A stretch of 32,000 bases of DNA from Candidatus Saccharimonadota bacterium (GTDB lineage Bacteria; Pseudomonadota; Alphaproteobacteria; CAJXXZ01; 1604HC): positions 450,001-482,000 of the forward strand of contig NZ_CP043315.1 of NCBI RefSeq assembly GCF_008189285.1, read 5' to 3'. Positions 2,795 to 31,078 of the stretch are shown one piece after another. Position 1 is the stretch's first letter. The number at the start of each line of letters is the position of its first letter. The position numbers and the translations under genes are program-made. The notes under the pieces were generated by a model. The model searched no databases. It was not told the origin of the DNA and was given only the letters and a program-made list of their open reading frames with translations.

Positions 2795-3319
2795 TTGATT
2801 GTTGTACAAATGACAACTATAATGGTATCAATTATGAACTTAAAAAATATTCTCAAGATTATACCTAAAGAATACATAAAGCAATTTTCGAAAGATATTA
2901 ATTATATTGTAACCACTAGAAATGCATTGCCAAGCTTATGGAGCTCAATGCCTGTTTCAGGGATAAATGCATTAGATTTGCTTGATTTGTCTAGTTTTTC
3001 TAAGGAAATAATTCAACATATACGCAATTCCTCTACGTGGACAGATTTTAATGAAATAATATCTCAAATAAGCAAAATCGTTCTTAAGGATGAAATAACT
3101 CATGCGCATATTACAATAGCAAGTAAAAATGAAGAGTTAGAATCAGAGCTTAAACAGTACATACTAAGAGCTGACAAAGAGGCAAACATTAAATTTAAGT
3201 ATAAAACAAATATACTTGGAGGATTTTTAATAGACATAGGATCTATCAGAATTGATGGATCTTATGTTAATATGTTGAGTAAATTTATTGGAGAATTGAA
3301 TGAATCGCTTAAATTTTGA
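2795..3319 (+). CDS. atpH: ATP synthase F1 subunit delta (OSCP)
   Basis: The C-terminus NILGGFLIDIGSIRIDGSYVNMLSKF matches the delta/OSCP signature. It lies directly upstream of and overlaps atpA. The start is uncertain: TTG at 2795, or ATG at 2810, 2822 or 2834. Confidence 0.7.
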   Translation: MIVVQMTTIMVSIMNLKNILKIIPKEYIKQFSKDINYIVTTRNALPSLWSSMPVSGINALDLLDLSSFSKEIIQHIRNSSTWTDFNEIISQISKIVLKDEITHAHITIASKNEELESELKQYILRADKEANIKFKYKTNILGGFLIDIGSIRIDGSYVNMLSKFIGELNESLKF

Positions 3320-4816
3320 AGACATCGTAAATGGAATTAAATCTAAAATAGATTCTATGAACACAAATATAGATATATATGAAACTGGAAAAGTTGAAAC
3401 TGCATCAGATGGAATATGCAATATTCTAGGATTGTCTGATGCTATATATGGAGAAGTGGTCATTTTTGAAAACAAGCAAAAAGGATTGATAGTAGAGCTT
3501 CTGGAAGACAGCGCTAAAATTGCAATACTAGACTCTAATCCTAGCGTTAAATCAGGAATGATGGTTTATAGAACAAAAAAGATTTTAAGCGTTAAAGTTG
3601 GACCAGAAATGCTTGGAAGAACTGTAAATGCTTTTGGAGAACCTATAGATGGAAAAGGAGAAATCGAAACCAGCTTGGAAAGAGTGGTTATGTCAGAATC
3701 TCCTCAAATTATAGATAGAAAAAAAGTTACGCAACCTCTTTATACTGGAGTAAAAATGATTGATGCTCTAATTCCAATAGGATATGGGCAAAGAGAGTTA
3801 ATTCTTGGAGATAGAAGAACTGGGAAAACTACAATAGCAATCGGAACTATTTTAAATCAAAAAAAACATTATGAAGAAGGCAATCCTATATATTGTGTTT
3901 ATGTTTGCATTGGTAAAAAAGCTTCTGAAGCAGCAAAGTTAGTTCATTATCTAGAAGAGCAAGGAGCAATGAATTATTCTACATTTGTAGTGGCATCTGC
4001 AGATGATCCAGCAATATTCCAACATTTAGCTCCTTATGTAGGAACTGCTATAGCAGAATATTATAGAGATAATGGAAAACACGCATTGATTATTTATGAT
4101 GATTTATCAAAACATGCCATTGCTTACAGAGAAATCTCCCTATTGCTAAAAAGATTCCCAGGAAGAGAAGCGTATCCTGGAGATATTTTCTTTGTTCACT
4201 CTAGTTTGCTTGAAAGAGCTGCATGTATGAGTGATGAAAAAGGAGGCGGATCTCTAACAGCAATACCTATAATTGAAACATTGGAAGGTGATATTTCTTC
4301 ATATATTTCTACGAATGTTATTTCTATTACAGATGGGCAAATCTTCATGGATAAAAATCTTTTTCTTTATGGTCAAAGACCAGCTATTAATACAAATATA
4401 TCAGTAAGTAGAGTTGGTGGATCAGCTCAAACACAGGCTATGAGAAAAGTTTCAGGAATGCTTAAGTTGGAATTAGCTCAATATGCTGAATTAAAAGAAT
4501 TTTCGCGATTCCTTACAGATATAGATGATACAACTAAAAAAGCATTAAGGAGAGGAGAAGCTGTAACTAAAATATTAAGACAGGGTGCAAGTCAGCTATA
4601 TTCTTTTGAAGATGAAGTTTTGGTTATATTTGCTTGTAATGCAGGTTATTTTGATCATTTTAATCCAGATCATTTGGAAGAAGTTGAGAAGAATTTCTTG
4701 TTAAAATTCAAAAAAGAGCATCCTGAAATAGTAGAAAAATTGATAACCAATAAAGTGATTAACGATGAAATTGATAATACAATTAAAAGATTTATCAAAA
4801 AATCTAAGGAGCAATC

Positions 4817-4820
<4 letters not shown>
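3300..4820 (+). CDS. atpA: ATP synthase F1 subunit alpha
   Basis: 506 aa. Walker A GDRRTGKTTIA, plus YDDLSKHAIAYREISLLLKRFPGREAYPGDIFFVHSSLLERA. GGAGA RBS lies upstream of the ATG at 3300. Confidence 0.97.
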
Positions 4821-7159
<2,339 letters not shown>

Positions 7160-7160
<1 letters not shown>

Positions 7161-7543
7161 TGTTTCTTTCAATACTTTCTGGAAACAATGAAATTATACA
7201 TGAAAGTGTTCATATGATAGGATTTAGCTCTTCTCATGGAATGAGGGCTATATACACAGGTCACCAAAATTTTATAACCTCTATTCCTGCAAATTTATTA
7301 TTTGTGCTTTTTGAAAAAGGTCATAAATTATACTCAATTGGAGATTCTATGATTAAAAAGAAAAAAGAAAATCTTTATGTAATAACAAATTGCATCAATA
7401 AAAATCAAAAGTATAAAATACAAACTTCATTGGAAAAAATCTGGAAAGAAAAATATGATGGATACAAACCCACATGGACAAAAGAAAATTGGTTTGAAAA
7501 AAATATTGACCAAGCCAAAGATTTAGCTAAGAAAATTAGTTAA
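7160..7543 (+). CDS. atpC: ATP synthase F1 subunit epsilon (divergent)
   Basis: TAATG overlap with the atpD stop. 127 aa, which is the expected size and position. GMRAIYTGHQNFITS resembles the epsilon G-x-x-G-I-L-x-G-H motif. Confidence 0.65.
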
Positions 7544-11184: not shown

Positions 11185-11543
11185 TATTTTCAATATTTCA
11201 TATTTATGGCGATAATTAATGACTGATCATTGAGAAATATCAAATTTCAACAGCTATTCAATAGAATTTAATTGATGGCTTTTATTTAAATTATAATTTT
11301 GTTGAAATCTAATTACTTGATCTCAATTTCACTGCAATGCAATTATTTTACTTAGACTTTTATGCAATTTAATTGCTTTATCTCAATTTCACTACAACCT
11401 ACTGTTTTTTAACTCATAATTTTACATATATCAATTTAATACATGCTTACATTAAACTCATTAATATCAAACTGCAAAATCTAAGTTAGAGCTTATGGAG
11501 AATTGCAGATATATAATTTTACTTCGAACTATTGCGATAGAGG

Positions 11544-12278
11544 TTATTTTTGCGCTTGTGAGCGTTGCTGTGTATGCATTATTCCCTGAACTTGCTGATG
11601 ATGCACTGGAGATTGTGGTTGCGTTGGAAATTGGGATTGACTAGGATTCTGTTGCATCATTTGTTGCTGAGGTTGCATCATTGGAGGCTGTTGATGCTGT
11701 ACATGATGCTGATGTTGATTTAGTTGTGGCGCTGGAGCTGCATATGGGTGTTGCGCTGGAGACTGTGGTTGCGTTGGAAATTGGGATTGATTAGAATTCT
11801 GTTGCATCATTTGTTGCTGAGGTTGCATCATTGGAGGCTGTTGATGCTGCACATGATACTGATGTTGATTTAGTTGTGGCGCTGGAGCTGCATATGGGTG
11901 TTGCGCTGGAGACTGTGGTTGCGGAATCATCTGATTTGGTTGTGCATGTTGATGATTCTGCGATTGTGGTTGCGTTGGAGCTTGGGATTGACTAGGATTC
12001 TGTTGCATCACTTGTTGCTGTTGAGGAGCTATATATTGCGGTTGTGGCATCATTGCAACTGCATACTGCTGATGAGCTTGCTGCTGTGTTGGAACTTGGG
12101 ATTGATTAGAATTCTGTTGCATCATTTGTTGCTGAGGTTGCATCATTGGAGGCTGTTGATGCTGTACATGATGCTGATGTTGATTTAGCTGTGGCGCTGG
12201 AGGCTGTGGTTGAGCTTGCAGTTGTTGATATTGATGAGGTTGAGCTTGTTGAACCCCTATTTGATACTGTTGCTGCAC
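11544..12278 (-). CDS. Gln/Pro/His-rich repeat ORF; probably the severed C-terminal tail of the upstream MBL-fold gene (same frame, single TAA between) rather than an independent gene
   Basis: 244 codons from GTG at 12278. No Shine-Dalgarno sequence upstream; the first in-frame ATG is 44 codons in. The upstream ORF already ends Q-rich (ATQQSQMQQQS*). Composition is much more GC-rich than the surroundings. Confidence 0.35.
   Translation of the reverse strand: MQQQYQIGVQQAQPHQYQQLQAQPQPPAPQLNQHQHHVQHQQPPMMQPQQQMMQQNSNQSQVPTQQQAHQQYAVAMMPQPQYIAPQQQQVMQQNPSQSQAPTQPQSQNHQHAQPNQMIPQPQSPAQHPYAAPAPQLNQHQYHVQHQQPPMMQPQQQMMQQNSNQSQFPTQPQSPAQHPYAAPAPQLNQHQHHVQHQQPPMMQPQQQMMQQNPSQSQFPTQPQSPVHHQQVQGIMHTQQRSQAQK
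11631..12230. repeat. Coding tandem/interspersed repeat, ~150-bp (50-aa) unit
   Basis: The anchor ttgggattga(c/t)tag(g/a)attctgttgcatca recurs at 11631, 11781, 11982 and 12096. Copies 1 and 2 are exactly 150 bp apart and nearly identical. They encode QHPYAAPAPQLNQHQHHVQHQQPPMMQPQQQMMQQN(S/P)(N/S)QSQFPTQPQSPA. Confidence 0.85.
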
Positions 12279-12284
12279 TTGAAC

Positions 12285-14144
12285 TTAAGATTGCTGTTGC
12301 ATTTGACTCTGTTGAGTTGCTTCGCTTCCTATATTCATTCCTCCTGCAAAAAGATCAACCAATCCTTCTTGAGCAGGTTGCGAATTCAATTCTTGACGCT
12401 GACTTTGCTCTGATTGTGATGCAGAATCATCTCTTTTGCTCACTTCTGAAGATACATCTTCAACTTTCCATGCAAATGATCTTTCGATATGATTTTTCAA
12501 ATTATTAGTTGAAATCCAATATGAGCATGATGAATTGCCTCCATCGCGCCCATAACTTGTCAATTGATTCGTAGAAAAATTAAACCTACCATTTGTTGAT
12601 CCATCGCTTGTTGATCCATCGCTTGTTGATCCATCGCTTGTTGATCCATCGCTTGTTGATCTATCATTTGTCATTTTATTCAATTCTGCTAATCTTTCTA
12701 TGATTTTTTTGCTATATTTATCTGTTGGATATTTATCTAAATTGTTTGTAACTTTGCCCACAACATATGCACTAGGAGCTTGGACTCTTTCTCCATGCCC
12801 ATTCGAAGAAATGATTAATGCAGGTTTAAACAAGCTAATCGCAGAACATAATGAGCTATCTGCTCCATGATGTGGCGCAATAATAACTATGTGATGATTG
12901 TCTTTATTGAATTGCATTTCACTATTCATAACTGAATTAAAATTATTGCCAACAATTTGATGCAAAATGCTAGATCTGATTTTACCTTGCAATTCATCTT
13001 CAAAATGCACGTTAAGGGTTCCAATTTCAGACATCATTGCTATTCCTTTACTTTTTGCTTCACCTATCTTGCTCTGTTTTCCCAAATCTCTCTGTTGAGG
13101 CTTATATTCTTTTATAATATCTTCTACATTTTTTACAAATTCTTCACATGATTCCTTGTGAAACTCTTTGTTTATCAGCATTTGCGCAATTGCGTTGTTA
13201 TCTGCATCTCCTGTGCATAGCACTGATACATATTGATCTTGATCAGGAGAGATTTTATGCGTAAATGAGATTAATGGACTAACAACATTTTGCTCATCTA
13301 TATCTGCATATCTTGTATTAGCTGAAACAATATTTACATATCCAGCTAATACGCTATTAACTTCATCAAAAAGACCTAAATAACCTGAATCGCATCCTCT
13401 AGTGAAATTTTTTAAACTGTTTGCATTTTTAGCCAAATCAAATAATTCAGTCAAATTACCACTAAAGAATTGTGGGCTTTCTCCTGCAGCATTTTGCCAG
13501 AAATATGGCTCTGCAACAGGAATATCTCCTGTATTTATCAAATCTTCAGCTCTTTCTATAGAAGTAGGATCTACGCTAGGAACACGAATGGATCCAGGTC
13601 TAGTTTGGCTCAAAGATTTTTTAAAAGACCCCTCAATTCCAGTTTCTTTGCTCCAATCACCAAATGCAAATACTGCAATTTTGATATCGCCTTTGAACTT
13701 TCTATCATCCGTAGCGCTATAATATTTACTCTTTGTTACCACTGCTGCACTTGTTGAATTTTTAGGATATAAAATATGATGCAAGATATTAAAATGATCC
13801 ATATCTGGGTGAGAAAGAAATATAGTCAAATAATCAAGCTCTTTCAGTTTCTCATGAACATTCTCACATAAATCTGGATATTCCTGATCATTAGCTTTAA
13901 AACCATTATGTGTTTTATTCAATCTTGCAGGATATTCACTGCTTCCGCAGTCATACATATATCCAACTTTTTGACTGAGAGAAAAAGCCTCTCCGCTATC
14001 ATCTTTTCTATCACGATCAATTAAATCATAAATCATGATATTGCAGTTGCCCTGCCCTACATCCATGATCCCGAAGTGACTTTCCTCGACTTCAAATACA
14101 CAAAATATTTTAGAAATACATAGTAAGAGTAATTTTTTATTCAT
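12285..14144 (-). CDS. Secreted or membrane-anchored MBL-fold hydrolase, ComEC/Rec2 C-terminal-domain-like (paralog 1)
   Basis: 619 aa with hydrophobic N-terminus MNKKLLLLCISKIFCVF. Ordered motifs: MDVGQGNC, YDCG, FLSHPDMDHFN (H-x-D-x-D-H), CTGDAD, IAPHHGADSS, SSNGHG, YWISTNN. AAGGA RBS lies before the ATG at 14144. Confidence 0.55.
   Translation of the reverse strand: MNKKLLLLCISKIFCVFEVEESHFGIMDVGQGNCNIMIYDLIDRDRKDDSGEAFSLSQKVGYMYDCGSSEYPARLNKTHNGFKANDQEYPDLCENVHEKLKELDYLTIFLSHPDMDHFNILHHILYPKNSTSAAVVTKSKYYSATDDRKFKGDIKIAVFAFGDWSKETGIEGSFKKSLSQTRPGSIRVPSVDPTSIERAEDLINTGDIPVAEPYFWQNAAGESPQFFSGNLTELFDLAKNANSLKNFTRGCDSGYLGLFDEVNSVLAGYVNIVSANTRYADIDEQNVVSPLISFTHKISPDQDQYVSVLCTGDADNNAIAQMLINKEFHKESCEEFVKNVEDIIKEYKPQQRDLGKQSKIGEAKSKGIAMMSEIGTLNVHFEDELQGKIRSSILHQIVGNNFNSVMNSEMQFNKDNHHIVIIAPHHGADSSLCSAISLFKPALIISSNGHGERVQAPSAYVVGKVTNNLDKYPTDKYSKKIIERLAELNKMTNDRSTSDGSTSDGSTSDGSTSDGSTNGRFNFSTNQLTSYGRDGGNSSCSYWISTNNLKNHIERSFAWKVEDVSSEVSKRDDSASQSEQSQRQELNSQPAQEGLVDLFAGGMNIGSEATQQSQMQQQS
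12586..12675. repeat. In-frame 15-bp coding tandem repeat (ccatcgcttgttgat x4 perfect, plus 2 degenerate flanking copies) encoding (STSDG)n
   Basis: Perfect copies at 12601, 12616, 12631 and 12646. The protein reads DRSTSDGSTSDGSTSDGSTSDGSTNG. Confidence 0.9.
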
Positions 14145-14440
14145 ATTATTCCTTTGAAACTTGTTTTACATTTAAAAAAGAAATATATCAATGCTCTAAT
14201 GAATTATGAAAATATATAAATAAATGCTTTTTACTTTACCTCAATTCAGATTCAATTAATTTTTATTTATAAGAATTTAAAGTCATGTATTTTTATTTAT
14301 CACGTTTTAAACTAAATTCACTTTTATTTAAAAATTTATTTAATAAGATTTTAAGTTATTTGATTAAATTGCATTTAACTATACTATTTCTGAAAATGAC
14401 CTCTCTATAAATCAAATTTGCAAAATCTCTCAACGAATTA

Positions 14441-19197: not shown

Positions 19198-21465
19198 TTA
19201 ACTGACTTGAGGTGGTTGAGATATTATTTCAACACCTTCGGGCTGTTGACTTCCTGCTCGCGCACCATCATGAAGCAATGCACTAGCATCATTTGCAACT
19301 AGGACTGGCTGCATTGATGATGAAACTTGTGAATGAGTATCATTTGCAGCTAGAGCTGATTGCTGCGATAATAAAATATTTTGTATATGATCATTCGCTG
19401 CAACAGCCATAATCGCACTTGCGCTCACAACACAGCGCGTTGCAAGAAGATCTCCTTCTGTAGAGCATGAATATATCTGCCCTCTCAAAACATCAACATC
19501 CAGAAACTCTTGAGAGCCAGAAAATGCATTATACATTGCTAATGGGTTTCTTTCTTCTGAACATGCAATCCTAAGAGATCCATGATCATTTGTAGAGAAA
19601 AGCCATATAGAGCAAGGTCTTTTTTCTCCTTCATCTCCCTTTTTCTGATAAACTGTTATTTTTTTACCCCAAGTAATTTCATCTATATCCTTAACACTAT
19701 ACTGACTTTCAAAGGTAATTTGACTATTTCCTTTAAAAAACTCACCAACAAAATCTAGGCGTGGATTAAAAGCATTGGTCAAATTCTTAAAGAAATTAGC
19801 ATGTATATGAGGCTGCTGACCTCCATGACCATTTGACACATAAAGAATATTTGCACAAAATAATCTAGCTAAACTAATTGCAACTTGCCATTGTTCTTCA
19901 GATCCGTGATGAGGAGCAACTAATGCAACTTTGTCATTTTTGAATCTGCTTGCCACGGAATCAATAATATTTTTTCTGTAATCTGCTCTTGTTACAGGGT
20001 GAGATGCAATTCTTTTTCCCTCGTCTGCAAAAAATTTCATTCTTTCGAACATATCATTTCCACTTGCAGGGTCATTTAATTTTTTCATTTTCTCACATAA
20101 TTCCAACGCTTCTTTCTCATATTTCATTGTTATCAATCCTTGCAACATATCAGAAAAAGTTGAGTCCTCTGCATCTCCAGCGCAAATTACTGAATAAGCT
20201 TTAGATGATCCATCAACTGTTCCTGTAAATGATATTATTGGACTTTGCGCATTTGGATTTCCTGTAGTATTCATGGACCAAATGTAAATATGATCTTTTA
20301 ATTCTTTAATTATCGCATCAAATCCTGAAATAAAACTTTTTTCTGCAACAAATTTACTAAACATAGATTTAATATCTCCTGAGAAGAATTCCGGTAAATT
20401 AAATTCTTGTTTTTGAGCAAATGGCTCAATCAAAATATGAGATCTATATTTCAAGCATTTTAGTATTTGCCCTGCTACACCTGATACCTTTCCCCCTGAA
20501 TCACTCTTACGCCAATCTCCACATAAAATAGACATAATCTTACAATTTTTAAAATCTTCCGCACTATCATTATGCTTATCAGATCTGGATCTAGAGTTAC
20601 ACTCACATCCAAACAATTTGCTTATAAAACTAATATGATCTCCTTCTGGATGAGATAAAATTATAAATAAATAATCCAAATTTTGCAGTTTTACTCTCAA
20701 ATTATGTGCCATAGTAGAAATGGAATGAGATTGATTTGACTTGTCAGATTCTTGCTCTTCTTTCACTAAACTTTGATGATAAATATACCAAGATATTTTT
20801 TTAAGCAATTCTTTTTTGTCTTTGTCAGATAACTTATCAAATTTCTCTCTATTTACTTCTTTCAAAATAGGAAAATACTGATGAATTTTTTTGCATTTAA
20901 GCATTGCTTCAATCAATTTCTCGCCTACTTCTTTGATTTCTTTTTTAATGTTATTCTCACATTCATCTTTACCTAATCTCCATCTTGTATAATCTGCGCT
21001 AATTTCTTTATTACCCCATTCTTTCATTTTATTTTCCCACTCTTCTATCAAGCACAAGAGCTCTCCAATTTTTCCTCTACGTATAGTTTCAATTTTATTT
21101 TGCCGCCCTTTTATCTTAAATTCTACTTCAATTTCTTTATTAACAAACTCCAAAATCCCTTTGCTTGCTTCATCTTCACCCAATTTCGTTCCCAAATTCT
21201 TAGAATATTCAGTTTTTCCACAGTCATATAGGAATGCAACTGTTTTTCTCTCAATTACATCGCACATGCCAAGCAACACCTTGCTTCCATCTTCTCCTAT
21301 TGAATCAATTATTGGCTTTCTGAACTTTGCATCAATAACATACTTCATAATCTGGCAATTACCCTGCCCGACGTCCTCGATTGAGAAATCATATTCAACT
21401 ATCCCAGCGTATATATTCAGAAAGGTAGCTAAATATATAAATGGAATCCTAAAAAACTTATACAT
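19198..21465 (-). CDS. Secreted MBL-fold hydrolase, ComEC/Rec2 C-terminal-domain-like (paralog 2) with a Lys/Glu-rich insertion and an Ala/Ser/Gln-rich repeat tail
   Basis: 755 aa. Signal-peptide-like MYKFFRIPFIYLATFLNIYAG. Motifs: EDVGQGNC, YDCGK, LSHPEGDHISF, CAGDAEDS, VAPHHGSEE, SNGHGG, WLFSTNDHGSLRI. Confidence 0.55.
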   Translation of the reverse strand: MYKFFRIPFIYLATFLNIYAGIVEYDFSIEDVGQGNCQIMKYVIDAKFRKPIIDSIGEDGSKVLLGMCDVIERKTVAFLYDCGKTEYSKNLGTKLGEDEASKGILEFVNKEIEVEFKIKGRQNKIETIRRGKIGELLCLIEEWENKMKEWGNKEISADYTRWRLGKDECENNIKKEIKEVGEKLIEAMLKCKKIHQYFPILKEVNREKFDKLSDKDKKELLKKISWYIYHQSLVKEEQESDKSNQSHSISTMAHNLRVKLQNLDYLFIILSHPEGDHISFISKLFGCECNSRSRSDKHNDSAEDFKNCKIMSILCGDWRKSDSGGKVSGVAGQILKCLKYRSHILIEPFAQKQEFNLPEFFSGDIKSMFSKFVAEKSFISGFDAIIKELKDHIYIWSMNTTGNPNAQSPIISFTGTVDGSSKAYSVICAGDAEDSTFSDMLQGLITMKYEKEALELCEKMKKLNDPASGNDMFERMKFFADEGKRIASHPVTRADYRKNIIDSVASRFKNDKVALVAPHHGSEEQWQVAISLARLFCANILYVSNGHGGQQPHIHANFFKNLTNAFNPRLDFVGEFFKGNSQITFESQYSVKDIDEITWGKKITVYQKKGDEGEKRPCSIWLFSTNDHGSLRIACSEERNPLAMYNAFSGSQEFLDVDVLRGQIYSCSTEGDLLATRCVVSASAIMAVAANDHIQNILLSQQSALAANDTHSQVSSSMQPVLVANDASALLHDGARAGSQQPEGVEIISQPPQVS

Positions 21466-21520
21466 AACTTTATTTCTACACTAAAAATGATTAGCATAAT
21501 AGCTTCTTGTGCATTTTTGA
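21340..21520. repeat. Left arm of an inverted repeat shared with 23635-23815 (5' UTR plus the first 42 codons of paralogs 2 and 3)
   Basis: The reverse complement of 21340-21465 matches 23690-23815 with one mismatch by eye (atagttg vs ataattg). The ~55 nt upstream are also clearly homologous, e.g. ctaatcattttt(a/g)(g/a)tgtagaa. Confidence 0.85.
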
Positions 21521-22227
21521 TACTTATTTCTGTTTTTGCTATTTTTGCTATATATTATTTGTCGATCTCTATAGTTTTTCGCTTCACTATAAATACAATA
21601 ATTTAACTAATCTTCTAATAATCTTATAATAAAGAAATTCATAAATTTTTTAAAAGATTCATTGCTTCTAAGATTTTTGCGATTTAATTACCAAGCGCTT
21701 CCATTGGAATTTTTTATGATTTAATTGCTAAGCATTTCTATTAGAATTTTTTTAGCTTTTTCTTCTCCTATTCTTTTGTTATTTAATAGTTGAGCGCTTC
21801 TGTTAGAATTGAAAATAATAAGATATTTCCACGAAAAATTCAATTGGAATTATTAAAGAAACTTCTTATCAAATTTTGCTTTAAATTATTAATCACATCG
21901 TGCCATTTCTGCTAAAATAAAATTTACGCTATTTTTCCTAAAATAAAATATTTGCATGAAAATTATATGAAAAATATTAATTATAACAATGCCAATAATG
22001 CTTACCTACTTTTCTTTAATTAATACTATGTTTTCATTTTTTTAGCACTTTTCTTTTGAGTTCTATATTTTGCTTTTAAATTATATCATTTTTAGTTTTT
22101 TTTATATTTTTTGATATATTTCTTTCAATATGCCTTTTTAATATATTGTCATATTTTTTAGCGCTTTATTTTAGTAATTTTCACCATGTTTTTTAAATAA
22201 TACTTTGCTTGATTTGGATTTCTTTGA

Positions 22228-23484: not shown

Positions 23485-23634
23485 GAAAGTATATTACCAT
23501 TTTTTAACTATTAATCTCTAGTGATTATATTGCCGAATGCAATTCATTTGAGCTAACTATTTTATTAAAATAATATATTTTATTCAAAATGCGAAAATAA
23601 TTTTCATAAATTTCTATAAACCTATAAAATTGCA

Positions 23635-23815
23635 TAAAAAATACATAAAAAGCTATACTACTAATCATTTTTGATGTAGAAGTAAAATTATGTATAAGTT
23701 TTTTAGGATTCCATTTATATATTTAGCTACCTTTCTGAATATATACGCTGGGATAATTGAATATGATTTCTCAATCGAGGACGTCGGGCAGGGTAATTGC
23801 CAGATTATGAAGTAT
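23635..23815. repeat. Right arm of the inverted repeat shared with 21340-21520
   Basis: See the left arm. It includes a -10-like TATACT at 23654-23659, where the paralog 2 copy has TATTAT at the equivalent position. Confidence 0.85.
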
Positions 23816-25522
23816 GTTGTGGAATTAAGCACAGTGTCAGAATTTGGGGATAGTCATGGGAAAAAGCAATTTAAAAAAGAAGATGGAAAAGTTGTAGAAT
23901 CAAGTGAGCAGAAGCAATTTGAAAGGAAAATTGAGAGAAAAACAGTTGCATTCCTATATGATTGTGGAAAAGTAGAATTTTCTAAGAATTTGGGAACGAA
24001 GTTGGATGAAGAAACATATAAACTTGCAGAAGAATTGAATAGCAAATTTAAAGAATTGAATAAACAAAAATTCGAATTAAAATCTAATGAAGATAAGATG
24101 ACCAAAGCAGATAATAAGGGGAATTCATCAAAGAACGATGGAACTCCAACTAAAGATTATGCTAGATGGAGTAAAAATATAAAGCAAAATGAAGAAAAAA
24201 TTAAAGAAATAAATAAAGAAATTAAAAAGCTTTCAAAAAATCTTTTTGCATGCAAAAAAATTCATCAGTATTTTCCCATTTTGAAAGAAGTAAATAGAGA
24301 GAAATTTGATAAGTTATCTGACAAAGACAAAAAAGAATTGCTTGGAAAAGTATGCAAATACATCAATGACCAAAATTTAGTGAAAGAAGAGCAAGAATCT
24401 GACAAGACAAATCAACCTTATTCAATTAATACTATGGCGCATAATTTGAGAGCAAAGTTGCAAAACTTGGACTATTTATTTGTAATTTTATCTCATCCAG
24501 ATAAGGATCATATAAACTTTATAAGCAAATTATTTGGATGTGAATGCGCTGCAAACGCAAACGCAGATGATATTGACAAGCACAGCGATTCAAAATATCT
24601 GAAAGATTGCAAGATTATGTCTATTCTTTGCGGATATTGGCGTAAAGGTGATGAAAATTCAGATGAAGGCAAAGAAGATAATTCTAATGTTATGAAGCAG
24701 GCATTAGGATGTCTTAAAAAAAGATCTCATATTTTGATTGAGCCATTTATTACAAAGCAAAAAAACTCTCATTTACCGAAATTTTTCTCTGGAGATATTG
24801 AATCTATGTTTAATAAATTTGTTGCAAAAAAAAGTTTGATTTCAGGATTTGATGCGATAATTAAAGAATTAAAAGATCATATTTACATTTGGTCCATGAA
24901 TACTCCAGGAAATCCAAATGCGCAAAGTCCAATAATATCATTTACAGGAAAAGTGGATGGAGAATCTGATGAGCAAGCTTATTCAGTAATTTGCGCTGGA
25001 GATGCAGAAGATTCAACTTATTCAAATATGGTAACAGAATTAGCAATAAGAGAGCAGAAAAATATAAGATCTGTTCTTGATCTAATAGAAAGCAAATTTG
25101 GAGATAGCAGAATTGCATTAGTTGCCCCTCATCACGGATCTGAAGAGCAGTGGCAGATTACTTTTAATCTAGCAAAATTGTTTCAAGCAAACATTCTTTA
25201 CATATCAAATGGACACGGAGGAATGTATCCCCATATAAATCCAAATTTCTTCAAGAATTTAACTGCTGCGTTTAAAGTATGGCCTGAATCCAGCGAAAAA
25301 TTCTTCTTAGGAGATTGTCAAATTTCTTTTGAAAGCCAATATAATGCTAGAACCATAAATGCAATTAACGAAGGAAAAGAAGTTGATGGGGAAAATGAAG
25401 GAAAGAAAATAACTGTTTATAAGCAAAAAGGTAAAAAGGGAGATAAAAAAGATTGCCCACCATGGCTTTTCTCTACAAATGATCATGGATCTCTTAGAAT
25501 TGTACGCCATTCGCGTTCATAA
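23690..25522 (+). CDS. Secreted MBL-fold hydrolase, ComEC/Rec2 C-terminal-domain-like (paralog 3); has a Lys/Glu-rich insertion but no C-terminal tail
   Basis: 610 aa. The first 42 residues are identical to paralog 2 except one I/V. Motifs: EDVGQGNC, YDCGK, LSHPDKDHINF, CAGDAEDS, VAPHHGSEE, SNGHGG, WLFSTNDHGSLRI. It then stops 6 codons later. Confidence 0.55.
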   Translation: MYKFFRIPFIYLATFLNIYAGIIEYDFSIEDVGQGNCQIMKYVVELSTVSEFGDSHGKKQFKKEDGKVVESSEQKQFERKIERKTVAFLYDCGKVEFSKNLGTKLDEETYKLAEELNSKFKELNKQKFELKSNEDKMTKADNKGNSSKNDGTPTKDYARWSKNIKQNEEKIKEINKEIKKLSKNLFACKKIHQYFPILKEVNREKFDKLSDKDKKELLGKVCKYINDQNLVKEEQESDKTNQPYSINTMAHNLRAKLQNLDYLFVILSHPDKDHINFISKLFGCECAANANADDIDKHSDSKYLKDCKIMSILCGYWRKGDENSDEGKEDNSNVMKQALGCLKKRSHILIEPFITKQKNSHLPKFFSGDIESMFNKFVAKKSLISGFDAIIKELKDHIYIWSMNTPGNPNAQSPIISFTGKVDGESDEQAYSVICAGDAEDSTYSNMVTELAIREQKNIRSVLDLIESKFGDSRIALVAPHHGSEEQWQITFNLAKLFQANILYISNGHGGMYPHINPNFFKNLTAAFKVWPESSEKFFLGDCQISFESQYNARTINAINEGKEVDGENEGKKITVYKQKGKKGDKKDCPPWLFSTNDHGSLRIVRHSRS

Positions 25523-29704: not shown

Positions 29705-30439
29705 CTAAAATGAAATTGATTTCGCAATCGTAATGCAATATACGCCTTTTACTCCAGCATCTTTCAATACTTTTGCGGCTGAATTTAAAGTTGCTCCTGT
29801 AGTTGTAACGTCATCTAGAATCAAAACATTCTTCCCTTTAATTTTATTCTCATGAGCATAGTTAATTTCAAATGCATTTTCCATATTTTTCTTTCTGCCT
29901 GCCTTATTAAATTTGCTCTGACTATATGTCCATTTCGTACGCAATAACCCATCTCGCAAATGAGATATTTTTGCAATCTTTGACAGTTGTTTTGTTAAAA
30001 TCTCAGTTTGATTATACCCCCTCCAAAACAATCTCCAATTATGCAAAGGAATTGGAATTATATAATCCACATTATCGGCCCACTCTTTAATTGAATTATT
30101 CATTAAATTAGCAAAGAAATTAGTCAAATAAAAGCAATTATGATTCTTATAAGACATAATCAATTTCTTGGTATTTATATCATATTTCATAATAGATTTC
30201 GCATAGTCTATATAATATTTCTTATTTTGTATGCATTTTCCACATGAAATTGACTCTCCCATATCATATGAAAAAGGGTTTCCGCATGTCTTGCATGCTG
30301 GATCCTGTATAAATCTAATTTTATTCCAACACTTATGACACAATCCATTCTCTTGCAAAGGAGCATTACATAAATAACATATCTTTGGATAAAATAAATC
30401 AGTAATCTTGTTCATACATTTACTTACAATTGAATTCAT
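29705..30439 (-). CDS. comF: ComF family protein (ComFC-type amidophosphoribosyltransferase-like)
   Basis: N-terminal Cys-rich zinc-finger region: CYLCNAPL...CHKCW...CKTCG...CGKC. C-terminal PRTase motif VLILDDVTTTGATL. Confidence 0.8.
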   Translation of the reverse strand: MNSIVSKCMNKITDLFYPKICYLCNAPLQENGLCHKCWNKIRFIQDPACKTCGNPFSYDMGESISCGKCIQNKKYYIDYAKSIMKYDINTKKLIMSYKNHNCFYLTNFFANLMNNSIKEWADNVDYIIPIPLHNWRLFWRGYNQTEILTKQLSKIAKISHLRDGLLRTKWTYSQSKFNKAGRKKNMENAFEINYAHENKIKGKNVLILDDVTTTGATLNSAAKVLKDAGVKGVYCITIAKSISF

Positions 30440-31078
30440 TTATACCTCAATTGTTTTTTCAATATCTTGATTTATATTTTGTATAATTTGGTTAAATATT
30501 TTCTCTCTACTCAATCTTCCGAAACATAATCCATCAAGAAATCCAATAAATTGCTGGTAATTACTTTCATTTAGCGATCCTCCATAGCAAATTGGCTTAT
30601 TTGTAATTTTCCTAATTTGCATTACTTTATCAGCAATAATATTCGCGCCTGGAGCATCTTTTTTTCCTATATATTCATGTGGCTCATAAACAATTATTCC
30701 ACTTTTAGATAAATTGCTTAATTTCTCAGCTTCATATATATCTCTCACAAAAATAATAGGAATGATATCATTCTCATCGCATGCTTTGATCATACTTTTT
30801 GGATTATAATTACTTTGATAATGATCTGCATGATTGCATAAACAATGCTTAACATTAAATTGCTTTAATAATTCTATAGATATACTTCCAGTTAGTGTAT
30901 TTTGTGTAAAATTCTGAGCACATAATGATATGTTTTTCAAATTAGATAACTTAGATATGGCAAAATAATTTGGCGCAACAATATACTTTACATTCTTCTT
31001 ATGATTATACTCATAAATATTTTCCATAACTGATGCATTTTGAATGCCTTTCCAGTTTGCTATTACGAAAAAACTCAC
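30440..31078 (-). CDS. tpiA: Triosephosphate isomerase (short, divergent); GTG start
   Basis: VIANWKG (catalytic Lys), LCAQNF, TGSISIELLK, CNHADH in place of GHSERR (His kept), VYEPHEYIGK (catalytic Glu), CYGGSLNESN. The stop abuts the comF ATG. Confidence 0.7.
   Translation of the reverse strand: MSFFVIANWKGIQNASVMENIYEYNHKKNVKYIVAPNYFAISKLSNLKNISLCAQNFTQNTLTGSISIELLKQFNVKHCLCNHADHYQSNYNPKSMIKACDENDIIPIIFVRDIYEAEKLSNLSKSGIIVYEPHEYIGKKDAPGANIIADKVMQIRKITNKPICYGGSLNESNYQQFIGFLDGLCFGRLSREKIFNQIIQNINQDIEKTIEV

Follow-up and report, generated by a model that had tools for sequence, protein, structure and literature searches.

A single in-frame TAA inside a glutamine-rich tract of a putative metallo-beta-lactamase-fold gene from a relative of Candidatus Cytomitobacter primus

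Does the single in-frame TAA that separates a 619-amino-acid (aa) protein with a putative metallo-beta-lactamase (MBL) fold, here called MBL1, from a glutamine-rich open reading frame (ORF) mark a gene broken by a nonsense mutation, or does it divide two products that are both maintained? The question arises on the minus strand of a 32,000-nucleotide stretch of DNA (contig NZ_CP043315.1, positions 450,001 to 482,000), which is referred to as the window and whose own numbering is used throughout. We favour, with a probability of roughly one half, a recent CAA-to-TAA nonsense mutation in a young, low-complexity C-terminal extension of MBL1. The split reading frame consists of the following elements:

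12285 to 14144, minus strand: MBL1, a 619-codon ORF and its TAA, with a signal-peptide-like N-terminus, a predicted MBL-fold core at approximately aa 17–549, and a low-confidence Ser/Gln/Glu-rich end at aa 550–619.
12285 to 12287, minus strand: the in-frame TAA (TCT TAA GTT CAA GTG), which is codon 620.
11544 to 12284, minus strand: an open frame rich in Gln, Pro, His, and Met, with 246 sense codons, a closing TAA, and a candidate GTG start at 12278–12276.

The ATG of MBL1 at 14144 opens 619 sense codons (14144–12288) that end in ATQQSQMQQQS and are followed by the TAA at 12287–12285 and, in reading order, by GTT CAA GTG CAG CAA CAG. The same frame then remains open for 246 codons until the TAA at 11546–11544 of the minus strand. 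Taken as one, the two ORFs form a frame of 866 codons interrupted by a single stop, and adjoining ORFs in the same frame with one stop between them are the arrangement expected of a nonsense-split gene. A CAA ancestor of the stop would mean a G, not an A, at plus-strand position 12287. The downstream ORF, when listed on its own (11544–12278), begins with GTG and has its first ATG at codon 45. An earlier note, made from the sequence alone, had described a shared frame, a single TAA, a GTG start after two codons, and an ATG 44 codons in, and every factual statement in that description is correct. The shared frame is nevertheless a weak argument for a split gene. The prior for two ORFs to share a frame is 1/3, not above chance, and tpiA (30440–31078) and comF (29705–30439) adjoin without a spacer in the same frame (TAA-ATG, 30437–30442), so such adjacency arises between unrelated genes in this genome. 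When all stop-to-stop open frames in the window with 150 codons or more are compared, only that of MBL1 and that of tpiA, which runs into comF, continue for more than 36 open codons past the stop.

The composition is continuous across the stop. Of the last 45 residues of MBL1, 12 are glutamines, and 6 of these fall within the last 9. The last 20 residues likewise contain 6, a count that never rises above 4 in 7,807 windows of 20 residues taken from 23 other proteins of the window. These counts bear out the claim of the earlier note that the upstream protein is already turning glutamine-rich. The AlphaFold model of MBL1 is confident up to approximately residue 549, and the predicted local distance difference test (pLDDT) score is below 50 for residues 550–619, which are therefore probably disordered:

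12288 to 12497, minus strand: the low-confidence segment before the stop, aa 550–619, identified by the AlphaFold pLDDT; glutamine enrichment sets in within it.

Together, the enrichment upstream of the stop and the low-confidence segment suggest that the TAA interrupts a continuous, probably disordered low-complexity tract. The predicted location of the stop inside such a tract, and not at a domain, fold, or gene boundary, is the strongest internal evidence for a nonsense mutation; continuity of sequence or composition is what a gene split in this manner should display.

The tail has the properties of a coding sequence. It encodes 92 glutamines (37%), 38 prolines, 20 histidines, and 17 methionines, no aspartate or glutamate, and one arginine and one lysine, both within the last six residues. 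Over 11544–12284 there is no stop in the tail frame, and there are 4, 4, 4, 15, and 36 in the other five frames. In 5000 dinucleotide-preserving shuffles of the tail, the mean number of stops was 5.3 and 0.36% of the shuffles were stop-free (P = 0.0036). Cytosine occupies 63% of the first and 3% of the third codon positions, adenine 53% of the second positions, and 32 different sense codons are used, which distinguishes the tail from a simple microsatellite. The guanine plus cytosine (GC) content of the tail is 45.5%, compared to 24% in the adjoining spacer and 26% in the equivalent spacer of Candidatus Cytomitobacter primus. The high GC content results from the encoded Gln, Pro, His, and Ala combined with native, A/T-ending synonymous codons, and thus points to coding sequence rather than to recent foreign origin. 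These properties suggest that the tail is coding or was so until recently. An origin of the tail by horizontal gene transfer from the host was considered and rejected, since the third codon positions are native-like.

Part of the openness of the frame is due to repetition. About 140 of the 246 tail codons are copies of one unit of 45–50 codons, and a third, more diverged copy of the 150-bp repeat is located at approximately 12087–12200:

11602 to 11923, minus strand: a 150-bp in-frame tandem repeat (50 codons), 2.1 copies with 96% identity, from Tandem Repeats Finder (TRF) and codon-by-codon comparison.
11185 to 11543, no strand: a 359-bp AT-rich spacer (24% GC) that separates the Q-rich frame from the convergent rpoD and in which no terminator-like site was detected.

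The repeats, together with the lack of the tract in C. primus, are compatible with a Q-rich frame that was never translated, in which a CAA/CAG-rich repeat expanded in the 3' untranslated region and stayed open by accident; when the repeat copies are collapsed, the probability of an open tail rises to approximately 0.01–0.04 by our conservative estimate. However, the repeat period is a multiple of three, the tract runs on into the translated end of MBL1, and the GC content exceeds that of the spacers by 20 points. The strong codon structure, diverse codon set, and native synonymous usage are likewise difficult to reconcile with an untranslated repeat, and we consider this explanation very unlikely. 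On the opposite, plus strand of the Q-rich tract, at 11565–12508, several Leu-rich ORFs of 52–120 aa mirror CAA/CAG as TTG/CTG and are not credible genes.

Database searches returned no relatives of the tail. The Q-rich frame has no match in Pfam or NCBIfam, and a search of 5.8 billion protein sequences with the Q-rich ORF gave no match, itself included, which indicates that it has probably never been called as a gene. A scan of metagenome contigs produced 306 pattern matches, of which 0 were confirmed, and there is no other Q-rich frame in the window or in the related loci L001–L010. The downstream ORF does not appear to be an independent, conserved gene, with no homolog in the protein search, the metagenome contigs, or the related loci.

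The number of stop-prone codons limits the age of the arrangement. Each of the 92 CAA/CAG codons of the tail is one C-to-T transition away from a stop; nonsense hits are therefore to be expected, and the event should be recent. Under neutral evolution, equal rates would leave the tail open with a probability of 0.48 at 2% divergence and 0.16 at 5%, and a threefold C-to-T bias with a probability of 0.14 and 0.01, respectively. A neutral tail would probably close by about 2–5% divergence, and with so large a target the tract is not expected to have stayed open for long without selection. The intact frame and high GC content consequently mean either that the event is very recent or that the tail is still under selection. 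A comparison of synonymous and non-synonymous differences between the tandem copies contained too few differences to have any power as a test of selection.

Continued selection would be expected if the locus had two real products, with the Q-rich ORF translated alone by termination-reinitiation at the GTG at 12278 on the MBL1 transcript. The division may have originated as a nonsense mutation and now be maintained, yielding an enzyme of 619 aa and an uncharged Q-rich protein of 244 aa. The GTG is positioned only 6 nucleotides (nt) past the TAA, which is a normal distance for termination-reinitiation and places a start codon within a few nucleotides of the upstream stop, as in coupled gene pairs. 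Genes routinely abut or overlap in this genome, as in the atp operon and tpiA/comF. No Shine-Dalgarno-like motif precedes the GTG; the earlier note had correctly reported this absence, but the argument is weak, because only approximately 12 of the 25 ORF starts in the window have such a motif. Against two products stand the missing motif, the onset of Q-richness upstream of the stop, the lack of a signal peptide on the Q-rich ORF, unlike on its partner, and its absence from the protein database. In addition, nothing comparable occurs in C. primus or in the metagenome-assembled genome (MAG) OZ247501. A tail attached to a secreted protein is more plausible than a stand-alone 244-aa protein with a GTG start and neither a signal peptide nor a Shine-Dalgarno motif. 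We regard two products as unlikely, but as deserving serious consideration.

Alternatively, the stop could be read through in a programmed or leaky manner, with some ribosomes decoding UAA with a near-cognate tRNA-Gln and producing a shorter and a longer isoform. The frame past the stop is intact, the insertion of glutamine would suit the local sequence, and in-frame stops with conserved downstream sequence have been reported as common in prokaryotes (PMC7918605). Nevertheless, the leaky cases cited there are TGA, and the stop here is UAA, in the context UAA-G. TAA terminates 18 of the 25 ORFs in the window, and 16 of the 23 others when this locus is set aside. Both release factors recognise UAA, which of the three stop codons is the least prone to leak. 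No significant RNA structure was found around the TAA (161 nt folded, z = -0.43), and Rfam and tRNA scans of the window identified a tRNA-Gly only, with no suppressor tRNA or recoding element. The downstream extension is also not conserved in relatives, since it is missing from C. primus and from approximately 100 family representatives. Readthrough is thus the least probable of the explanations considered here. A reassignment of TAA to glutamine was rejected: TAA is the usual terminator, and the conserved genes atpA, atpD, and tsaD are intact under genetic code table 11 and align with their profiles over almost the full length.

By either route, the arrangement would be maintained and not decaying. 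One transcript would then provide a 619-aa secreted MBL-fold enzyme and either a long isoform with glutamine at the UAA or the GTG-reinitiated 244-aa protein, and the second product, carrying an uncharged, prion-like tract of 246 residues that is rich in Gln, Pro, His, and Met and of de novo origin in this lineage, would possibly act on the diplonemid host or its mitochondrion. We consider such maintenance doubtful.

The TAA might also reflect an error in base calling or assembly, or be an allele not shared by the whole of a mixed endosymbiont population, in which case the true gene would be an intact ORF of 866 codons. One substitution restores the frame, and the tail is perfectly intact. However, the site is outside a homopolymer (TCTTAAGTT), the source contig is chromosome-sized (628,024 bp), and sister genomes of the lineage were assembled from high-coverage HiFi reads (PMC13598402). 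An error or polymorphism is accordingly improbable, at the level of the untranslated repeat.

The orthologous locus bears on the age of the tail. A scan of species-representative genomes found the MBL1 family in C. primus and in two 'Rickettsiales bacterium' MAGs of approximately 620 kb. The identities are 82–85% for DnaK, 84% for FabI, 73% for RpoD, and 53–56% for GrpE, SppA, and the M23 peptidase; together with the gene order, they show that the source of the window is related to C. primus, which lives as an endosymbiont in diplonemid protists. Genomes of this lineage of diplonemid endosymbionts have a size of approximately 0.62 Mb and a GC content of approximately 30%, and are reported to be gene-dense and to encode many unknown secreted proteins (10.1101/719211; PMC13598402). 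The order of genes in the C. primus locus (L091) is M23 peptidase, MBL paralog, ybeY, grpE, dnaK, dnaJ, and P0008, followed by the convergent rpoD, dnaG, and atp operon. P0008 (562 aa) is the only positional ortholog of MBL1 that was found, with approximately 25% identity, and the databases searched contain no closer relative. Its C-terminal tail is charged and unrelated to that of MBL1, there are 4 open codons past its TAA, and 212 bp of spacer with 26% GC extend to rpoD. In MAG OZ247501, no MBL homolog was detected in the approximately 1.1 kb available downstream of dnaJ, which contains a 380-bp AT-rich spacer and a convergent gene. A metagenome scan with DnaJ gave only relatives with at most 40% identity, which are useless for synteny.

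From these comparisons, the Q-rich tract, approximately 0.9 kb of additional sequence, appears to be specific to the lineage of the window, and therefore none of the relatives compared here can reveal an ancestral CAA. The earlier note had proposed a formerly ~865-aa protein cut by a nonsense mutation and had suggested checking orthologs. The proposal is supported by the position of the TAA inside a continuous, low-complexity, coding-like tract, but it lacks a fused ortholog, and P0008 has no Q-rich tail. The ortholog check turned up no fused ortholog with CAA and no conserved arrangement of two genes, and is uninformative rather than contradictory.

Several observations weigh against a recent nonsense mutation. 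The positional ortholog P0008 is without any Q-rich sequence, and no uninterrupted ORF spanning both parts was found in relatives within the searched databases. Very few pseudogenes have been reported in genomes of the Cytomitobacter lineage (10.1101/719211). The TAA lies right where the main Q tract begins, for which we estimate a chance of approximately 12% if a hit fell randomly among the approximately 105 glutamine codons. The downstream frame has acquired no second lesion, which also fits continued selection, and the GTG so close to the stop could support reinitiation. The stop at the start of the tract and the intact frame, with 92 stop-prone codons and a GC content still at 45.5%, count at the same time in favour of two products.

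The MBL1 family is expanded in the Cytomitobacter/Nesciobacter lineage of diplonemid endosymbionts. Under the preferred explanation, a nonsense mutation, the copy downstream of dnaJ would have gained a long, uncharged C-terminal extension rich in Gln, Pro, His, and Met. This extension probably grew through in-frame repeat expansion while it was translated. A C-to-T transition, the commonest mutation in an AT-biased genome, would then have converted an ancestral CAA at the start of the tract to TAA. The present product would be the 619-aa protein, and the 246-codon remainder, presumably no longer translated, would be a very young relic that is still undegraded. In-frame stops are widespread in bacteria and mostly short-lived (PMC7918605). 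The family is visibly in flux, as is evident from a split homolog in MAG OZ247501 and from the in-frame repeats within MBL1.

Split genes and nascent pseudogenes of reductive intracellular bacteria, such as the split genes of Rickettsia conorii, share several features with the locus: one in-frame stop, two ORFs in the same frame, a small AT-biased endosymbiont genome, and an intact downstream part. In contrast to them, MBL1 has lost a lineage-specific low-complexity tail and not a conserved domain, its catalytic part is untouched, and no intact ortholog documents the ancestral state. The locus also resembles translationally coupled gene pairs in that its stop and a potential start are 6 nt apart on one transcript, without a separate promoter or Shine-Dalgarno motif, but here a compositional tract crosses the junction, and neither a homolog nor a conserved counterpart of the downstream ORF was found. 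Candidate bacterial prion-like domains, which are Q/N-rich, are exemplified by Rho of Clostridium botulinum. The tail of MBL1 is similarly long, uncharged, and rich in Gln, Pro, and Asn, without acidic residues, and by composition it is a Q/N-rich, charge-poor segment of at least 60 residues. Unlike those domains, it is cut off from its protein by a stop, and the likeness is one of composition only.

The split of MBL1 is most likely ordinary genome decay, a known kind of event and not a new mechanism. If a nonsense mutation is indeed responsible, the locus captures gene erosion at its first step, in which one transition removed the young tail of a secreted protein in a 628-kb genome. Such a finding would be biologically unsurprising and of value for annotation, in which the locus should be recorded as one gene and a relic, or as a flagged split gene. 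It also shows that symbionts can quickly build and discard C-terminal extensions on candidate effectors. Should the Q-rich product be made, an obligate endosymbiont would have gained a prion-like protein or domain de novo, which would matter more.

The family to which MBL1 belongs is apparently uncharacterised, with approximately 100 representatives at 50% identity. MBL1 has no match in Pfam, and its score against the NCBIfam model 6A-MBL is 14 bits, with a cut-off of 220. A word-indexed protein search with MBL1 recovered only itself, and one with the family alignment only a distant JGI protein; an exhaustive profile search of 1.84 billion representatives yielded the approximately 100 family members, the best with approximately 25–30% identity to MBL1. 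The alignments conserve the motifs DVGQGNC, SHPDMDH, CTGDA, and APHHG or PHHGS, and the residues of the metal-binding motifs in MBL1 (S-H112-P-D114-M-D116-H117, D313, and H425-H426) are invariant or nearly so. The family profile gives a weak match to the ComEC/Rec2 MBL domain (E=0.013), as does one homolog to Pfam Lactamase_B (E=0.0038). The AlphaFold (AF2) model was built from 82 sequences and has a pLDDT of 68 and a predicted template modelling score (pTM) of 0.74; an earlier run with three sequences (pLDDT 33) was discarded. The top seven Foldseek matches of the model all have the MBL fold (CPSF73, INTS11, Ysh1, MBLBt2), with E=6.7e-4 and a probability of 0.87 for CPSF73, but the TM-scores are low, at 0.2–0.35. 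The MBL label is thus reasonable, although weakly supported. Like ComEC/Rec2-type and beta-CASP (CPSF73-type) hydrolases, MBL1 contains DVGQGN, H-x-D-x-D-H, the Asp in CTGDA, and PHHGS. Unlike ComEC, it has no membrane channel, and it is a stand-alone protein with a large helical insert and an N-terminus that, judged from its sequence, resembles a signal peptide.

The Q-rich tail occurs in none of the approximately 100 family representatives. The closest relatives of MBL1 have tails of 19–393 aa past the last conserved motif, often of low complexity. Two in-frame repeats, the 150-bp unit of the tail and a 15-bp unit in MBL1, indicate that the gene grows by in-frame slippage or duplication. The remaining features of MBL1 are the following:

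12593 to 12665, minus strand: a 15-bp tandem repeat, (STSDG)n, 4.9 copies with 98% identity (TRF), within MBL1 just before the last conserved family motif.
14150 to 14210, minus strand: a candidate MBL1 promoter-like site, TTCATA-17-TATATT with TG, at 14210–14182, and AAGGA 6–10 nt before the ATG, both from consensus matches only.

MBL1 is one of three family copies in the window (12285–14144, minus strand; 19198–21465, minus strand; 23690–25522, plus strand), for which no curated family model reaches its cut-off. The family is lineage-specific and fast-evolving, its members bear signal peptides, and it clusters around grpE-dnaK-dnaJ, the M23 peptidase, and fabI-sppA. This clustering is seen both in the window and in C. 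primus, which has at least 7 copies (loci L001–L003 and L091). Between species, the paralogs are only 25–36% identical, and their C-terminal tails vary widely and include transmembrane repeats, coiled coils, and low-complexity segments. The family members are candidate secreted effectors. Paralogs 2 and 3 belong to a large inverted duplication (19566–21521 and 23634–25502) around the M23 peptidase gene, the arms of which are 74–93% identical in patches, with 93% identity of the 5' ends and upstream regions. Paralog 2 has approximately 120 additional C-terminal residues, and no remnant of such a tail is present downstream of paralog 3.

One family member, in MAG OZ247501 (ERZ25333236), is split in two, with ORFs of 244 aa for the N-terminal and 475 aa for the C-terminal part (locus L095, 6001–6735 and 6732–8159) that overlap at ATGA. 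The 475-aa ORF continues the MBL domain, and the pair is either a frameshift-split pseudogene or a two-part gene. A distant member, P0015 (586 aa), is encoded two genes downstream of a TraG/VirD4-like type IV secretion coupling protein in the Logan assemblies SRR22387833 and SRR22388043 (loci L093, 2374–7273, and L094, 32–4931), which hints that some family members are associated with type IV secretion systems. Another member, P0023 (L092, 8001–9740), is located on a 41.6-kb contig (JGI 3300071567) with gene-poor, eukaryotic-looking surroundings that include WD40-repeat genes and a piggyBac-like transposase domain; the contig could reflect a transfer to a host genome or be chimeric.

The window additionally contains an atpH-A-G-D-C operon at 2795–7543. 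Its gamma subunit is short (249 aa) and scores 60.8 bits with a cut-off of 194, and the putative delta and epsilon ATP synthase subunits in the window have no NCBIfam model match. The operon fits the 'ATP synthase without oxidative phosphorylation' reported for the Cytomitobacter lineage (10.1101/719211).

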